Below are positions 18,707 to 25,313 of a stretch of 64,000 nt of DNA, one piece after another. Position numbers and translations under genes: made by a program. The notes under the pieces were generated by a model. It made no database searches. It worked only from the letters and a program-made list of their open reading frames with translations, and was not told the DNA's origin. The stretch spans positions 25,566-89,565 of the forward strand of contig CAWGEL010000019.1 of NCBI GenBank assembly GCA_963821595.1. The letters run 5' to 3'. This DNA comes from an uncultured Chloroflexia bacterium. Its GTDB lineage: Bacteria > Chloroflexota > Limnocylindria > Limnocylindrales > CSP1-4. Each line of letters opens with the position of its first letter. The first letter of the stretch is position 1.

Positions 18707-18905
18707 CCAGGGACTGAGCTCGGTGCGGGTCAAGCCCCACCGCGGGCTGGTCGCCCCGAGGGGCTCACGCTCCCGCAGGGGACCGAAGCTCGGCTGAGTT
18801 CGGGCAGCTGGCCACGCAGTCCAGACCGGGACCCACGGCAGCCCGGGGGCGTCGCACAGGGTGGGCGGCCGCCCACCCAGGTCCCGACGCCTATACTCAG
18901 GCGCC

Positions 18906-21893
<2,988 letters not shown>

Positions 21894-21978
21894 GCCCGCG
21901 CCCGATGCATGCGCTCGTGAGCCCGCGCCCGGGCCCGGCCCCGCGGCTGGCGGATCGGCCCGCGGCGGACCCGTGGGC

Positions 21979-22623
21979 GTGACCCAGCGCCCGGCCCGCT
22001 CGTTGGTTCGTGAGCTCGCGATCGTGGGACTGGCAGGCACCGTCTGCATCGCCCTCGTGGGCGGCGCCACGACGGCCCGGATCTGGCAGCGCGGCCAGGT
22101 GGACGAAACGCGGCCGGTCGACGCCATCGTGGTCCTCGGCGCCGCCCAGTACGACGGACGGCCTTCGGGCGTGCTGGCCGCGCGCCTCGACCACGCGGTT
22201 CGCCTCTGGCAGGCGGGCAACGCGCCATTCCTGGTGCTGACGGGCGGCAACCGTGAGGGCGACCGGACGACCGAGGCCGCGGTCGGGCGTGGTTACGCGC
22301 TTGGGCGCGGCGTGCCCGCGAGCGCGCTGCTGTCGGAGAACCACGGCAGTTCGACGCTCGAATTGCTGCAGGCAGTGGCCGAGATCATGCGCGAGCACGG
22401 CCTCCGGAGCGCTCTCTTCGTTTCGGACCGGACGCACATGCTGCGCGTCATCCGGATCGCGAAGGACCTTGGGATCGAGGCCTACGGCTCCCCGACGCCG
22501 TCGAGTCCCACCGACGCGGACCCGGGACGCGCGTTCGAGGCCACGCTCCACGAGCTCGGCGGCCTGGCCTGGTACGAGCTGTTCGGGACGTCCGGCCCGG
22601 AAGCGGTCGAACCGGGCGCCTGA
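21979..22623 (+). CDS. YdcF/DUF218 family protein
   Basis: DAIVVLGAAQY, LVLTGG, TEA, VSDRTHMLR. Confidence 0.85.
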   Translation: MTQRPARSLVRELAIVGLAGTVCIALVGGATTARIWQRGQVDETRPVDAIVVLGAAQYDGRPSGVLAARLDHAVRLWQAGNAPFLVLTGGNREGDRTTEAAVGRGYALGRGVPASALLSENHGSSTLELLQAVAEIMREHGLRSALFVSDRTHMLRVIRIAKDLGIEAYGSPTPSSPTDADPGRAFEATLHELGGLAWYELFGTSGPEAVEPGA

Positions 22624-22695
22624 GGCCGGGCGCCTGAGGCCGGGCGCCTGAGGCCGGGCGCCTGAGGCCGGGCGCCTGAGGCCGGGCGCCTGAGG
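22612..22695. repeat. Perfect 14-bp tandem repeat x6
   Basis: (CCGGGCGCCTGAGG)6; the first unit contains the YdcF stop codon. Confidence 0.95.
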
Positions 22696-22814
22696 CTCGT
22701 TGTCGCCCGTGCCCGAGGCTCAAACCGGGCGCTCGGGGCCGCCGGGCGCTCGGGGCTCGCGCGCCTCCTTCCGGCCCCGGTTCGGGCGGCGATCGCGCCT
22801 CAGAAATCACCCTC

Positions 22815-22843
22815 TTGGCCGCTGCGCGATTGTTCCGTATACT
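22815..22843 (+). promoter_or_regulatory. sigma70-type promoter for the Cys-rich ORF-prfB unit
   Basis: TTGGCC-N17-TATACT. Confidence 0.55.
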
Positions 22844-22932
22844 CGGGTCAATCTACCTGCCCGCGCCGACGTCTGCCCAGTCCCACACCGTCGGCGGTCC
22901 GGGCGTCACTTGGCATTTTGCGAGAGGGAGTG

Positions 22933-23157
22933 GTGAAGCAGGCCCAGGACGCAGCGTTCGTCGACCTGATTGCGTGCGAGCGAGACTGCCGGACGTGCAG
23001 CTACGCAGCCGCTCTCGACTGCGACGGCAACTGCGGCATCTGCCCCCACAACGGATACTGCCCCTGCGTGAACCCCGTCGTCGCCCGCAGCAAGACGGCC
23101 CTTCGGCTGATCGAGCTGCGGCCGATCCTCCTCCAGGACGTGCGGGGCCGGGTCTGA
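22933..23157 (+). CDS. Cys-rich microprotein (8 Cys, two CxxxCxxC motifs)
   Basis: GAGAGGGAG RBS; CERDCRTC-x7-CDGNCGIC-x5-CPC; TGATG overlap with the prfB start. Confidence 0.8.
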   Translation: MKQAQDAAFVDLIACERDCRTCSYAAALDCDGNCGICPHNGYCPCVNPVVARSKTALRLIELRPILLQDVRGRV

Positions 23158-24294
23158 TGGACCGGTCCGAGCTGCACGATCTGGCCGAGCGGATCCGGGC
23201 GACCTCGGGGAGGCTTTGACCTCCCATCACGTGAGGCGCGCGTCGCCGAACTCGACGCTCTGACTTCCGCGCCCTCCTTCTGGGACGATCAGCGAGCAGC
23301 CAAGCGGCTCCTTCGCGAGGCCGACTCCCTGCGCGAGGAGATCGGCCTGTGGCGCGATCTCGAAAGCCGCGCCGCCGCTCTCGAGGAGCTGGCCGACCTC
23401 GCCGCGGAGGCCGAGGACGCCGACCTGATCTCCGAGATCGATCGTGACGCGGGCGCCCTGGCGACGGCCTTCGCGCGCGAGCGGACGTCGCTCCTCTTCT
23501 CGGGCGAGTACGACGAGCGCGGCGCGATGCTCTCGATCAGCGCCGGCGCCGGCGGGACCGAGGCCACCGACTGGGCCGAGATGCTCCTCCGGATGTACCT
23601 CCGATGGGCAGAGCGACACCGCTTCCCCACGCAGGTCATGGACGAGACCGAGGGCGAGCAGACGGGCCTCAAGAGCGTGACGATCGCCGTGGACGGCCGG
23701 CGCGTCTACGGTTGGCTTCGCGCCGAGCGCGGCGTCCATCGGCTGGTCCGGATCAGCCCGTATGACTCGCAGAAGCGGCGCCAGACGACGTTCGCCCTCG
23801 TGGAGGTCATGCCCGAAGTCGAGGACGAAGGCGAGGTCGAACTGAACTGGGACGAGATCCGGGTGGAGAACTACCGCTCCTCGGGGGCCGGCGGCCAGCA
23901 CGTCCAGAAGACCAACTCGGCGGTCCGGCTGACGCACGTACCGACCGGGATCGTCGTGACCTGCCAGAACGAGCGCTCGCAGACCCAGAACCGGGAGATG
24001 GCATCCAAGGTCCTGGCCGCCCGCCTCCTGGAGCGCCGCCTGGAGGAGAAGGAGGCCGAACTGCGCCGCCTCAAGGGCGAACACGTGGAAGCTGGCTGGG
24101 GCAACCAGATCCGCTCGTACGTGCTCCACCCCTACCAGATGGTCAAGGACCACCGAACCGAGGTGGAGACCTCGAACACGGGCGCAGTGCTCGACGGTGA
24201 CCTGGACGTGTTCATGGCCGCCGAGCTCGAGCGTGAGGCGACCGGAGCGCCGATCGGCAGTACGGGCGAGCCCGGCGCGCCGGGACCCGCCTGA
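23157..24294 (+). CDS. prfB: Peptide chain release factor 2 (programmed +1 frameshift)
   Basis: ATG 23157, GGGGAGG-CTT-TGA-C at 23207-23220; the +1 frame gives DLPSRE...FWDD, GGTEA.DWA.ML.RMY, SPY, GAGGQHV. Confidence 0.97.
23207..23220 (+). other. RF2 autoregulatory +1 frameshift cassette
   Basis: Internal SD-like run followed by CTTTGAC. Confidence 0.95.
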
Positions 24295-24302
24295 GTCGCG
24301 TC

Positions 24303-25313
24303 ATGTCGACGATGCCCGAGCCGCGCTCACGCGCCCATGCGCCGCGCGACCTCGCCTTCCGGCAGGCGGGTCCGGAGGACCTGCCGGCTTGCGGCGAGGT
24401 CTGGCGGGCCGCCCTGACCGACTACGGGCTTCGAGTGGGTCGTCCGCCCTTGCCACCGAGCTTCGGCCCGCTGCTGGAGCTGCTCGCCCACGTCCGCTCC
24501 ACGGACCCCGAGCGGTTCGTGGTGGCGACACGGCCGGGTTCGGCGGGCGAGGAGACGACCGCCTTCGGTGCCGCCGTGCGGCGCGGCCCGGTCTGGTTCC
24601 TGTCCATGCTGTTCGTGCTGCCTGAGCTCCAGGGAATCGGCGTCGGTCGGACGATCCTGGAGATGGTCCTTCCCGGGCCCGGCGATGACCTCACGCTGGC
24701 GACCTGCACCGACAGTGCGCAGCCCATCTCCAACGCGCTCTACAGCCGCTACGGCATCGTGCCGCGGCAGCCGGTCGTCGAGCTCGTCGGCACGCCGGAT
24801 CCGGCCCGCATGCCGGACCTGCCGGTCGGGATCCGGGCCGTCGCCCTGGGGGGCCAGGCGTCCCGGGCACTGCCCGGCGAGGGAGCTTCGGGAGGACCGG
24901 TGGATGCGCCCCTCGTCGAGGGGGCCGGGGCGATCGACGCCATCGATCGGGAGACGCTCGGCTACGCCCATCCCGAGGATCATGCGTATCTCGCGCGGTC
25001 GGGCCGCCGCGGGTTCCTCTACGAGGACGCGACGGGGACGGCGCTCGGTTACGGCTACGTCGCACCGAGCGGCCGGCTCGGGCCGGTCGCGGTGCTCGAC
25101 GCATCCCTCATGCCGGCCGCCTTCGGCCACCTCGTGCGAGCGGTCAGGCCGGCCGGCGCGTTCTCGGCCTGGATGCCGGGTGCTGCCGGCGAGGCCATGC
25201 GGGTCCTGCTCCAGGCCGGCATGCGGATCGAGGACTTTCCGGCACTCCTGTGCTGGGATCGCCCGTTCGGCGATTTCGGACGCTACGTGCCGATCACGCT
25301 CGCGGTGCTCTGA
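24303..25313 (+). CDS. GNAT-family N-acetyltransferase
   Basis: LFVLPELQGIGVGR acetyl-CoA motif, NALYSRYG. Confidence 0.82.
   Translation: MSTMPEPRSRAHAPRDLAFRQAGPEDLPACGEVWRAALTDYGLRVGRPPLPPSFGPLLELLAHVRSTDPERFVVATRPGSAGEETTAFGAAVRRGPVWFLSMLFVLPELQGIGVGRTILEMVLPGPGDDLTLATCTDSAQPISNALYSRYGIVPRQPVVELVGTPDPARMPDLPVGIRAVALGGQASRALPGEGASGGPVDAPLVEGAGAIDAIDRETLGYAHPEDHAYLARSGRRGFLYEDATGTALGYGYVAPSGRLGPVAVLDASLMPAAFGHLVRAVRPAGAFSAWMPGAAGEAMRVLLQAGMRIEDFPALLCWDRPFGDFGRYVPITLAVL

Follow-up and report, generated by a model that had tools for sequence, protein, structure and literature searches.

An eight-cysteine protein family encoded directly upstream of frameshift-regulated prfB in Candidatus Limnocylindria

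Autoregulation of RF2 by a frameshift within prfB is a textbook circuit, and the gene that carries it is normally self-contained, with a ribosome-binding site of its own. In the DNA analysed here (64,000 nucleotides of an uncultured Chloroflexota genome, in the following simply the window), the start codon of prfB overlaps the stop codon of a small, cysteine-rich gene. The locus thus raises two questions: what kind of protein this small gene encodes, and whether prfB depends on it for its ribosomes.

The small gene and its surroundings

The features of the locus are the following.

18861..21893, + strand: secA, the conserved upstream neighbour (ORF list; neighbourhood survey)
21973..22623, + strand: DUF218 (ElyC/SanA-like) gene between secA and the eight-cysteine gene (PF02698, E 6e-26)
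22815..22843, + strand: promoter-like site of sigma-70 type, TTGGCC-N17-TATACT, 5' of the putative operon of the eight-cysteine gene and prfB
22924..22930, + strand: Shine-Dalgarno (SD) sequence GAGGGAG of the eight-cysteine gene; GAGGGA is invariant in 24 clade-1 5' regions
22933..23157, + strand: eight-cysteine gene, 74 aa, GTG start, TGA stop counted in
22975..23067, + strand: 31-residue core Cys15-Cys45 with all eight cysteines inside; 31 residues in 239/239 loci
23068..23154, + strand: basic C-terminal tail, 29 residues; 26-31 residues in all three clades
23155..23159, + strand: TGATG stop/start overlap, TGA 23155-23157 (stop of the eight-cysteine gene) and ATG 23157-23159 (start of prfB)
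23157..23219, + strand: prfB ORF1, 20 codons to CTT, then in-frame TGA (sequence reading)
23207..23220, + strand: +1 frameshift cassette GGGG(AGG) CTT TGA C, invariant in 25 clade-1 sequences
23218..24294, + strand: prfB main frame, RF2 residues 21-378 plus stop, with PCRF and RF-1 domains

The original prediction had described a small ORF with a ribosome-binding site, 74 amino acids, the cysteine spacing C-x3-C-x2-C-x7-C-x3-C-x2-C-x5-C-x-C (read from the translation) and the TGATG overlap, and all of these are in the sequence. For comparison, 239 loci were assembled from three clades (80 in clade 1, 80 in clade 2 and 79 in clade 3), 238 of them with downstream sequence. The ORF as listed begins at TTG 22918 (79 aa). 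Its start was re-set from relatives to GTG 22933, because all 80 clade-1 loci have an equivalent GTG and four of them (L026, L039, L072, L073) have a stop codon directly before it. By codon position, clade 1 has 24/15/65 variable sites out of 74 and clade 2 has 17/12/62 out of 65, and the synonymous share of pairwise codon differences amounts to 76% and 88%, respectively. As the ORF is kept in hundreds of genomes and varies between them in the way of a coding sequence, 22933-23157 is a genuine protein-coding gene. Its product is even more alike between genomes than RF2: mean pairwise identity is 0.908 versus 0.757 when both proteins are taken from the same 69 genomes, and 0.937 versus 0.759 in a set of 76 genomes.

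Regarding its distribution, the gene is present in 190 of the 201 genomes that were sampled from the class Candidatus Limnocylindria (Chloroflexota), or 181 of 192 without nine unpublished genomes, and it is single-copy in the window's genome. The three clades comprise at least 496, at least 87 and at least 154 genome loci, and the protein fills 460 clusters that are named only 'hypothetical'. A survey of 268 other Chloroflexota yielded two weak matches only; the eight-cysteine protein is specific to Candidatus Limnocylindria. SecA is encoded upstream on the same strand in 70/80, 58/80 and 73/79 loci of clades 1, 2 and 3, and the DUF218 gene is present at 69/80 clade-1 loci and at none in the other two clades. 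The proposed placement within a secA-prfB locus, with secA upstream and prfB directly downstream, is therefore borne out by the relatives, and so is the conservation of the ORF and its linkage to prfB: it immediately precedes prfB in 238 loci of three divergent clades.

A promoter belonging to the small gene had also been proposed. TTGGCC (22815-22820) and TATACT (22838-22843), with a 17-nt spacer, form the only promoter-like site in 22400-23400 (mean over 50 shuffles 0.0), and the TATACT -10 hexamer is at least 90% conserved among 40 clade-1 upstream regions. Both observations agree with the proposal, and the segment 22815-22843 probably acts as the promoter of the gene pair. No consensus RNA structure was found in the clade-1 5' UTR, and Rfam gave only a sub-threshold match to aceE-II (19.4 bits, cut-off 100), which was taken as chance. 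None of the sequencing runs contained half or more of the words, and bins left without coverage carry no information. The contigs from RNA runs come from relatives and prove no transcript. One RNA-library contig of a relative spans 23055-23235, which is a weak hint, since an assembled contig may contain DNA.

The junction with prfB

The last codon of prfB ORF1 is CTT (23214-23216); an in-frame TGA (23217-23219) and a C come next. A single +1 step at L20 restores full-length RF2, 378 aa with PCRF and RF-1 domains, so that prfB of the window is of the frameshift-regulated type, as originally stated. Downstream of the stop of the eight-cysteine gene, CTYTGA(C/T) is present in 238/238 loci, at a distance of 52-101 nt except in L157 (142 nt). 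With known prfB autoregulation (surveyed in PMC12421855), the locus shares CTT TGA C, preceded at 3 nt by a G-rich element resembling an SD, and the length of ORF1, about 20 codons; here, in contrast, prfB has no SD and begins on or beside the stop codon of the gene before it. A term search of that survey turned up no upstream ORF, translational coupling, operon, secA or Chloroflex.

The geometry of this junction is kept in each clade. With prfB starts assigned by rule rather than observed (of the in-frame start codons 17-26 codons upstream of the shift site, the one most distant from it), prfB starts -1 to +3 nt from the upstream stop in 79/79 clade-1 loci, within 14 nt in 76/80 clade-2 loci (the other four gaps are 23-76 nt), and with a 14-nt overlap in 79/79 clade-3 loci. 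In the window, no GGAG, GAGG or AGGA lies 4-18 nt before the prfB ATG. Over the whole set, an SD tetramer precedes the prfB start in 29 of 238 loci (25 of 79 clade-1 loci have an SD-like tetramer in range), whereas one is found 4-18 nt before the start of the eight-cysteine gene in 233 of 239.

Genomes that do without the small gene offer a comparison. It is absent from a reduced-genome family of the class (0/7), and in the four genomes of this family that were examined secA is followed directly by a frameshift-type prfB, with a clear SD in three of the four. Likewise, five other Chloroflexota have a frameshift-type prfB with a clear SD and no cysteine-rich ORF upstream.

Overlapping or near-abutting stop and start codons on the same strand, the geometry of coupled genes, were thus seen both in the window and in its relatives. 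Huber et al. 2019 (PMC6728339) show coupling of overlapping gene pairs for E. coli and for Haloferax; how far an SD is needed varies. Common to those pairs and ours are the TGATG-type overlap or few-nt gap and the shared strand. Two things differ: the downstream gene here, prfB, has a +1 frameshift 20 codons on, and the arrangement, known from sequence geometry, is fixed class-wide with an upstream partner of no known family. Because of the junction geometry and the missing SD, prfB would be translated by re-initiation after the stop of the eight-cysteine gene; the SD-like tetramers of the 25 clade-1 loci and the four wider clade-2 gaps speak against this. The translational link to a prfB without its own SD, as first suggested, is in this sense upheld.

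RNA structure contributed nothing to this picture. At the junction, 0 of 22 predicted pairs had a compensatory change. A long-range pairing of an invariant 12-nt run in the small ORF with the region before the shift site was considered and rejected: its duplex energy, -30.0 kcal/mol, does not improve on the -29.5 kcal/mol of codon-shuffled controls, and genomes that lack the eight-cysteine ORF conserve the downstream partner as well.

The eight-cysteine protein and its look-alikes

The cysteine core is the most conserved part of the protein. Its eight cysteines (C15, C19, C22, C30, C34, C37, C43 and C45) are invariant in 146 sequences, as are 16 positions of the core altogether. The core is acidic (net charge -1 to -2), and the tail has a median net charge of +3 to +4 in the three clades; the tail sequence differs from clade to clade while its length is held. 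Judging from these cysteines, the protein probably binds metal. AlphaFold2 models were of low confidence, with a pLDDT of 50 from 146 sequences and 56 for the core alone from 83 sequences.

That no characterised family would match had been anticipated, and the searches gave this result. The window's protein hit no Pfam family at E up to 1 and no NCBIfam model, a Pfam scan of 146 family members at E up to 0.1 came back empty, as did PHROGs. In a profile search of the PDB the best hit was a beta-galactosidase (E 0.39). A protein atlas returned only the family's own unnamed clusters, named clusters scoring 0.80 or less, and viral contigs held no relative. Literature searches found no description of the protein or of a cistron upstream of prfB. 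The family, about 65-105 residues long with its 31-residue core, is new and well defined.

Several known systems resemble it in part. The Cx3Cx2C of radical SAM enzymes lies within a partial TIM barrel, a domain of at least some 200 residues, alongside SAM-binding motifs. Our protein has 74 residues, no barrel and no match to the superfamily model (PF04055), and its Cx3Cx2C is a motif resemblance only. Two such triads plus two more cysteines, with two Cys-Pro pairs, could give 4 + 4 ligands, as in 2x[4Fe-4S] ferredoxins. The ferredoxin assignment (Fer4) was rejected as well: the spacing is Cx3Cx2C...Cx3Cx2C...CxC and not CxxCxxCxxxCP, and there is no Pfam match. The eight-cysteine protein differs from both groups in having all eight cysteines within 31 residues. 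A RiPP precursor was discarded given the neighbours (secA, DUF218, prfB, a GNAT-like gene and ftsEX, with no maturase) and a core that is conserved rather than variable. In the case of a zinc-binding anti-sigma factor (Hx3Cx2C, zf-HC2), there was no Pfam match and no sigma factor gene among the neighbours.

One relative was found in another context. A protein with a ParB N-terminal domain (P0211; L242 313-1275, minus strand, from a Chloroflexota MAG) carries a homologous domain in its first ~70 residues, which align to the family profile with all eight cysteines (hhalign probability 95.3%, E 2e-8). It shares the flanking Y-x-D-L and C-x-C-x-N-P motifs, whereas its loops are longer (C-x5-C and x9) and the domain is fused to ParB_N and a helix-turn-helix, on a 3-kb contig away from prfB. 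P0211 is a singleton in 5.8 billion clusters. Since the homologous domain is fused to a ParB-like protein, the eight-cysteine domain would seem to work as a protein. Other apparent fusions were set aside. Longer proteins joining the small ORF to RF2, SecA or DUF218 have one member sequence each and were taken as gene-call read-throughs, and P0210, a clade-2 N-terminus with a family-4 uracil-DNA glycosylase on one 1144-nt contig, is a probable assembly chimera.

Explanations for the gene pair and what they mean

Taken as a whole, we consider it fairly probable that the small protein binds metal and that its synthesis and that of RF2 are obligatorily coupled at the level of translation, which is our best reading. 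The protein would consist of a short lead, the 31-residue eight-cysteine knot and the basic tail of 26-31 residues. The knot would most likely hold two tetrahedral metal sites, occupied by two Zn or by two Fe-S clusters; one Cx3Cx2C motif and one cysteine of the final C-P-C would make up each site. The gene of the protein would open an operon of two genes, with prfB as the second, under its own promoter. In Limnocylindria, prfB would have lost its own Shine-Dalgarno, and ribosomes ending on the eight-cysteine gene would re-start within a few nucleotides on prfB ORF1. RF2 output would then be the product of three terms, namely translation of the eight-cysteine gene, re-initiation efficiency and the RF2-sensitive +1 frameshift at CTT TGA C, and as a consequence the small protein would never be made in smaller amounts than RF2. 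The protein itself would act in trans. That its trans role lies in translation or termination, or is a metal- or redox-dependent role tied to them, is a tentative suggestion that we think less probable than its opposite; what links the protein to RF2 is co-expression alone, which weighs against the favoured reading.

The alternative that survives best, although we judge it unlikely, is that the protein is unrelated to termination: an Fe-S or Zn protein, such as an electron carrier, a metal buffer or a WhiB-like redox regulator, that shares the operon of prfB. The eight invariant cysteines would fit this, including a C-x2-C-x5-C stretch that resembles cluster-binding motifs of several Fe-S protein families, as would the acidic core, the re-use of the domain in a ParB-like DNA-binding protein and the loss of the gene without visible change in RF2. 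It gives, however, no account of a prfB junction that is kept in 238/238 loci, the 14-nt overlap included, with the SD lost. Metallothionein-like buffers are also rarely so conserved outside their cysteines, and no member (0/146) matched Fer4, Whib or metallothionein models.

Less probable still is that the protein serves RF2 or the terminating ribosome as a dedicated partner, for example as an ArfA/BrfA-like rescue factor or a metal- or redox-sensitive modulator of termination. This would suit an obligatory co-expression with RF2 across a class and a small protein with a basic C-terminal tail that is more conserved than RF2; five relatives, moreover, have only two RF-1-domain genes each, and thus no ArfB-type backup. 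As for the rescue context, a tmRNA is present alongside. The abstract of the BrfA paper expects that lineage-specific RF2-dependent rescue factors are still to be discovered (PMC6881298). Measured against ArfA and BrfA, our protein is likewise small, lineage-specific, tied to RF2 and basic in its tail; it differs in its eight cysteines and lack of sequence likeness, and it is known from sequence alone. Expression of ArfA and BrfA is, according to the abstracts of papers on them, tied to trans-translation via non-stop mRNA, whereas the eight-cysteine ORF must be read to its stop to feed prfB. An assignment to ArfA/BrfA was thus rejected, the conserved stop abutting prfB and no Pfam or NCBIfam model matching.

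Three further points speak against such a partner: the protein resembles no family in sequence, its tail is only mildly basic (+3 to +4), and RF2 is not relaxed in the family of genomes that lacks the gene. In that family RF2 has 10 group-specific substitutions, compared with 3, 16 and 6 in the three clades, and no special divergence or relaxed pattern was seen. As these genomes do without it, the eight-cysteine protein is not indispensable for termination. Both findings count against the favoured reading too.

We regard as improbable that the ORF is a cis-acting leader or uORF that tunes prfB through its translation or nascent chain, with a functionless peptide. The tight and conserved junction with a prfB without SD would be expected of a leader, and so would a tail held at 26-31 residues while its sequence differs; given the length of the exit tunnel, such a tail would put the cysteine knot near the tunnel end at termination. 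Opposed to this, the protein is under stronger purifying selection than RF2 over its whole length, the core never departs from 31 residues and keeps 16 positions invariant across 146 sequences, and the domain occurs elsewhere fused to a ParB-like protein. Leaders so large and conserved are not the rule, and covarying RNA structure is missing at the junction (0/22 pairs). The earlier suggestion of a 'Cys-sensing leader' was therefore given up, on the selection and the ParB-like fusion above all.

The original prediction had further proposed that the UGA stop of the small gene, read by RF2 only, could put prfB under another RF2-dependent control before the frameshift cassette is reached. The TGA that overlaps the prfB ATG in the window fits this, as do the 44 of 239 relatives that end in TGA; the other 195 use TAG (131) or TAA (64), readable by RF1, and an RF2 tree of 145 loci requires at least 15 changes of stop identity. 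In clade 1, TGA is even under-used, at 18/80 loci versus 294/393 neighbouring long ORFs (about 75%) and a share of 71.6% among all 2433 ORFs counted in the window's genome, which points towards a ribosome delivery kept independent of RF2. Clade 2 has no TGA bias (26/80 versus 169/460), and clade 3 has no TGA (0/79), its stop, however, falling within codons of the overlapping prfB. Read-through of the TGA would join the small protein in frame to RF2 in the window, a frame relation that is not conserved (37/40/2 in clade 1). A second RF2-dependent step is accordingly very hard to believe, and the identity of the stop codon is no part of the mechanism.

Returning to coupled synthesis of a metal-binding protein and RF2, what would it mean? 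In an abundant, uncultured class of soil and freshwater bacteria, the ribosome-binding site of prfB appears to have been replaced by a hand-over from the eight-cysteine gene. If the coupling is real, RF2 supply depends on the translation of a cysteine-rich, probably metal-dependent protein. A bolder version, to which we give little credence, makes the protein a dedicated metal- or redox-sensitive partner of RF2 or of ribosomes at termination, perhaps a novel type of termination modulator or a rescue factor dependent on RF2; or else the protein would fold at the tunnel exit in a metal-dependent manner and so gate the passing of ribosomes to prfB. If true, either would explain why the eight-cysteine gene has taken over prfB initiation in almost the whole class. 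A protein that acted on termination or ribosome rescue as well would count as a new translation factor. On a modest reading, too, the locus defines a new protein family that lends itself well to experiment.

Layout of the 8-Cys gene and its neighbourhood

On reading 22500-23700, all elements listed in the original prediction were found to be present, in the following arrangement:

22815-22820 and 22838-22843, + strand: promoter-like pair TTGGCC and TATACT, 17-nt spacer
22924-22930, + strand: GAGGGAG, ahead of the GTG at 22933
22933-23157, + strand: 8-Cys gene, from GTG 22933 to TGA 23155-23157, 74 residues
23157-23159, + strand: ATG of prfB, its first base being the A of the 8-Cys stop TGA
up to 23214-23216, + strand: prfB ORF1 (the stretch before the in-frame TGA), 20 codons, the last being CTT 23214-23216; TGA and C come next, and a GGGG stands 3 nt before the CTT

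TTGGCC-N17-TATACT is the sole promoter-like site within 22400-23400 (shuffle mean 0.0), and its -10 hexamer is at least 90% conserved across 40 upstream regions of clade 1, the one of the three divergent groups of 8-Cys loci that holds the window. The upstream blocks of clades 2 and 3 are likewise conserved, each being the clade's own. An automatic ORF call placed the start of the 8-Cys frame at TTG 22918 (79 aa). Because GTG stands at this start in 80/80 clade-1 loci, with a stop codon immediately before it in four of them, GTG 22933 was taken as the start. Downstream, reading with a single +1 shift at L20 yields an RF2 of 378 residues that contains PCRF and RF-1 domains. One contig assembled from a soil metatranscriptome, belonging to a relative, covers 23055-23235 and crosses both junction and shift site; it hints at a transcript at most, as contigs prove none and RNA libraries may hold DNA.

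Regarding the neighbourhood, secA lies upstream of the 8-Cys gene in 70/80, 58/80 and 73/79 loci of clades 1, 2 and 3, while a DUF218 gene (69/80) and a GNAT-like gene (72/80) occur in clade-1 loci only. On the same strand downstream, ftsE is found in 74/80 clade-1 and 70/79 clade-3 loci, and ftsX in 73/80 and 64/79, respectively. The window's GNAT-like gene (24303-25313, 336 aa) sits between prfB and ftsE, and all its Pfam matches fall below curated cut-offs. A perfect tandem array (22612-22696; 14-nt unit CCGGGCGCCTGAGG, 6.1 copies, 100% matches) carries a TGA in each unit because it starts where the DUF218 gene finishes; 22627-22795 is skipped in one DNA contig of a relative.

Coding status, family and architecture of the 8-Cys protein

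The 8-Cys ORF is a protein-coding gene under strong selection. Variable positions at the 1st, 2nd and 3rd codon base numbered 24/15/65 of 74 in clade 1 (74 distinct nucleotide sequences) and 17/12/62 of 65 in clade 2 (66 distinct sequences), with synonymous shares of pairwise codon differences of 76% and 88%. The protein exceeds RF2 of the same genomes in conservation, with identities of 0.908 vs 0.757 in clade 1 (69 genomes) and 0.937 vs 0.759 in clade 2 (76 genomes). Across 146 aligned sequences from the three clades, the eight cysteines and I13, E16, Y24, L28, G32, Y42, P44 and V46 are invariant. At the nucleotide level, codons N47-V50 (about 23071-23082) read AAC CCC GTC GTC in all 79 distinct clade-1 sequences, and in clade 1 only; this run includes four synonymous sites, and third positions elsewhere vary. 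The run pairs with the sequence ahead of the shift site no better than controls do.

A word-indexed search gave 460 protein clusters at E ≤0.01, the sole names being 'hypothetical protein', and 60 matches came from searching a single sequence exhaustively against 1.84 billion representatives. The protein has no match to a characterised family: none of 146 members matched a Pfam family, and NCBIfam, PHROG and PDB sequence searches were without match (best PDB E 0.39). No relative was found in viral contigs. Record titles are overwhelmingly Chloroflexota or Candidatus Limnocylindria MAGs, and the handful of contigs assigned to other phyla presumably reflect binning errors. Of 201 genomes sampled evenly across the class, 190 carry the gene (121/126 of the good-quality ones); nine of the 201 are unpublished, all matching, and without them the count is 181/192. 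It is single-copy in the window's genome, and outside the class weak matches occurred in 2/268 genomes of a phylum-wide sample.

The cysteines are spaced C-x3-C-x2-C-x7-C-x3-C-x2-C-x5-C-x-C. The lead is variable (6, 14, or 38-46 residues), whereas the core from first to last Cys has exactly 31 residues in 239/239 loci and a net charge of -1 to -2. It is followed by a C-terminal tail of 26-31 residues (net charge about +3 to +4), highly conserved inside each clade and unlike between clades. The two Cx3Cx2C triads and the C-P-C could provide two sites of four ligands, each suited to Zn or an Fe-S cluster; on this motif argument, the protein probably binds metal. AlphaFold2 models reached a pLDDT of 50 (entire protein) and 56 (core).

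The sole distant relative found is P0211, a 321-aa ParB_N and helix-turn-helix protein of another Chloroflexota MAG (locus L242, 313-1275, minus strand) and a singleton in a large protein collection. Over its N-terminal ~70 residues it aligns to the 8-Cys profile, all eight Cys included (hhalign 95.3%, E 2e-8). Judged from this alignment, the eight-Cys knot can act as a protein domain, which argues against a mere leader peptide; the earlier idea of a Cys-sensing leader is thus not supported. P0211 lies on a 3-kb contig, and its two adjoining ORFs look OB-fold-like by eye. A further protein, P0210 (227 aa, on a 1144-nt metagenome contig), is identical to the clade-2 protein over its first 31 residues and continues with a family-4 uracil-DNA glycosylase domain; the join falls at a C-P-R-C-P-R stretch common to both parts, and P0210 is probably an assembly chimera.

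Probable coupling to prfB and the stop codon of the 8-Cys gene

Eighty loci were taken per clade; a motif regex found the ORF in 239/240 (L187 was missed), and one locus, L008, stops just past the ORF, leaving 238 with downstream sequence. The predicted linkage to prfB holds throughout, as CTYTGA(C/T) follows the 8-Cys stop in 238/238 loci, at 52-101 nt in all but L157 (142 nt). By a rule of our choosing, the prfB start was set at the in-frame start codon lying farthest from the shift site within 17-26 codons upstream of it; in clade 3 this rule is backed by likeness of the ORF1 peptide to the other clades, judged by eye.

Table. The three clades: size, genome stretches found, distance from 8-Cys stop end to prfB start, and TGA at the 8-Cys stop vs background (long GC3-rich ORFs on the same loci in clade 1).
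Clade 1 (window's): typically 74 aa; at least 496 stretches; -1 (33), 0 (39), +1 (2), +2 (4), +3 (1) in 79 loci; TGA 18/80 vs 294/393
Clade 2: typically 65 aa; 87 stretches; ≤14 nt in 76 of 80 loci, others 23, 35, 35 and 76 nt; TGA 26/80 vs 169/460 (no bias)
Clade 3: 96-107 aa, Pro/Thr/Ser-rich insert before the core; 154 stretches; -14 in all 79 loci, a 14-nt overlap; TGA 0/79 vs 216/319, the stop sitting inside overlapping prfB codons

An SD tetramer was detected 4-18 nt before the 8-Cys start in 233/239 loci, and before the prfB start in 29/238 (25/79, 4/80 and 0/79 in clades 1-3). In the window, no GGAG, GAGG or AGGA occurs 4-18 nt before the prfB ATG. Judging from this arrangement, the 8-Cys gene and prfB are probably translationally coupled. 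In clade-3 loci L161-L166, a 5' UTR hairpin lies ~40-70 nt before the 8-Cys start, its two arms seeming by eye to change together between loci; no such hairpin was found in the 5' UTR of the window's clade.

The original prediction had also suggested that the UGA stop could add an RF2-dependent step. As a conserved feature this does not hold: among 239 loci, 131 end in TAG, 64 in TAA and 44 in TGA, so that TAG or TAA stands at 195/239. On a FastTree of RF2 proteins (145 clade-1 and clade-2 loci, with clade 3 and incomplete-RF2 loci left out), at least 15 changes separate 'TGA' from 'readable by RF1' states. In the window's genome, TGA ends 71.6% of 2433 long GC3-rich ORFs. There is a bias against TGA at the 8-Cys stop in the window's clade, among related and hence non-independent genomes, which would make sense if the supply of ribosomes to prfB must not be held up for want of RF2. 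The RF-1-domain genes in five relatives are RF1 and RF2 only, and a tmRNA was found in the window's genome. In the window, the 8-Cys frame equals the RF2 main frame, and across 23155-23220 the TGA is the sole stop between them, so read-through would yield a fusion protein; this frame relation varies among relatives (37/40/2 in clade 1). Altogether, the earlier interpretation stands in part, namely as a real, probably coupled gene whose product probably binds metal, and is not supported as regards a UGA sensor or Cys-sensing leader.

Genomes without the gene and relation to known systems

In one family of small genomes (1.0-1.4 Mb), the gene is found in 0/7. Four genomes of this family (G011, G044, G056 and G065; loci L244-L247) have secA directly followed by frameshift-type prfB (~56 nt apart in the single genome that was read completely), and a GAGGG-type SD precedes prfB in 3/4. 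Five Chloroflexota of other classes lack an upstream Cys ORF, and their frameshift-type prfB carries a plain SD. Both natural controls point the same way regarding the SD of prfB. The frameshift cassette of the small-genome family is the one also seen in the window's clade. Group-specific RF2 substitutions at otherwise conserved columns number 10 in this family vs 3, 16 and 6 in the three clades. PMC13212565 divides the class into four families; in one of them, whose sister family has larger genomes, reduction has brought the median genome size down to 1.3 Mb. The small-genome family that lacks the 8-Cys gene fits this description, which suggests that the gene was secondarily lost during genome reduction.

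Nothing was found in the literature searched (main texts) on the 8-Cys protein or the circuit, and in a term search PMC12421855 turned out to mention neither upstream ORFs nor coupling nor Chloroflexota. The circuit joins two known processes, termination-reinitiation coupling (PMC6728339) and the prfB frameshift (PMC12421855). What would be new is the apparent class-wide swap of prfB's own ribosome-binding site for a hand-over from an upstream cistron, and an upstream 8-Cys protein that appears to lie outside all described families.
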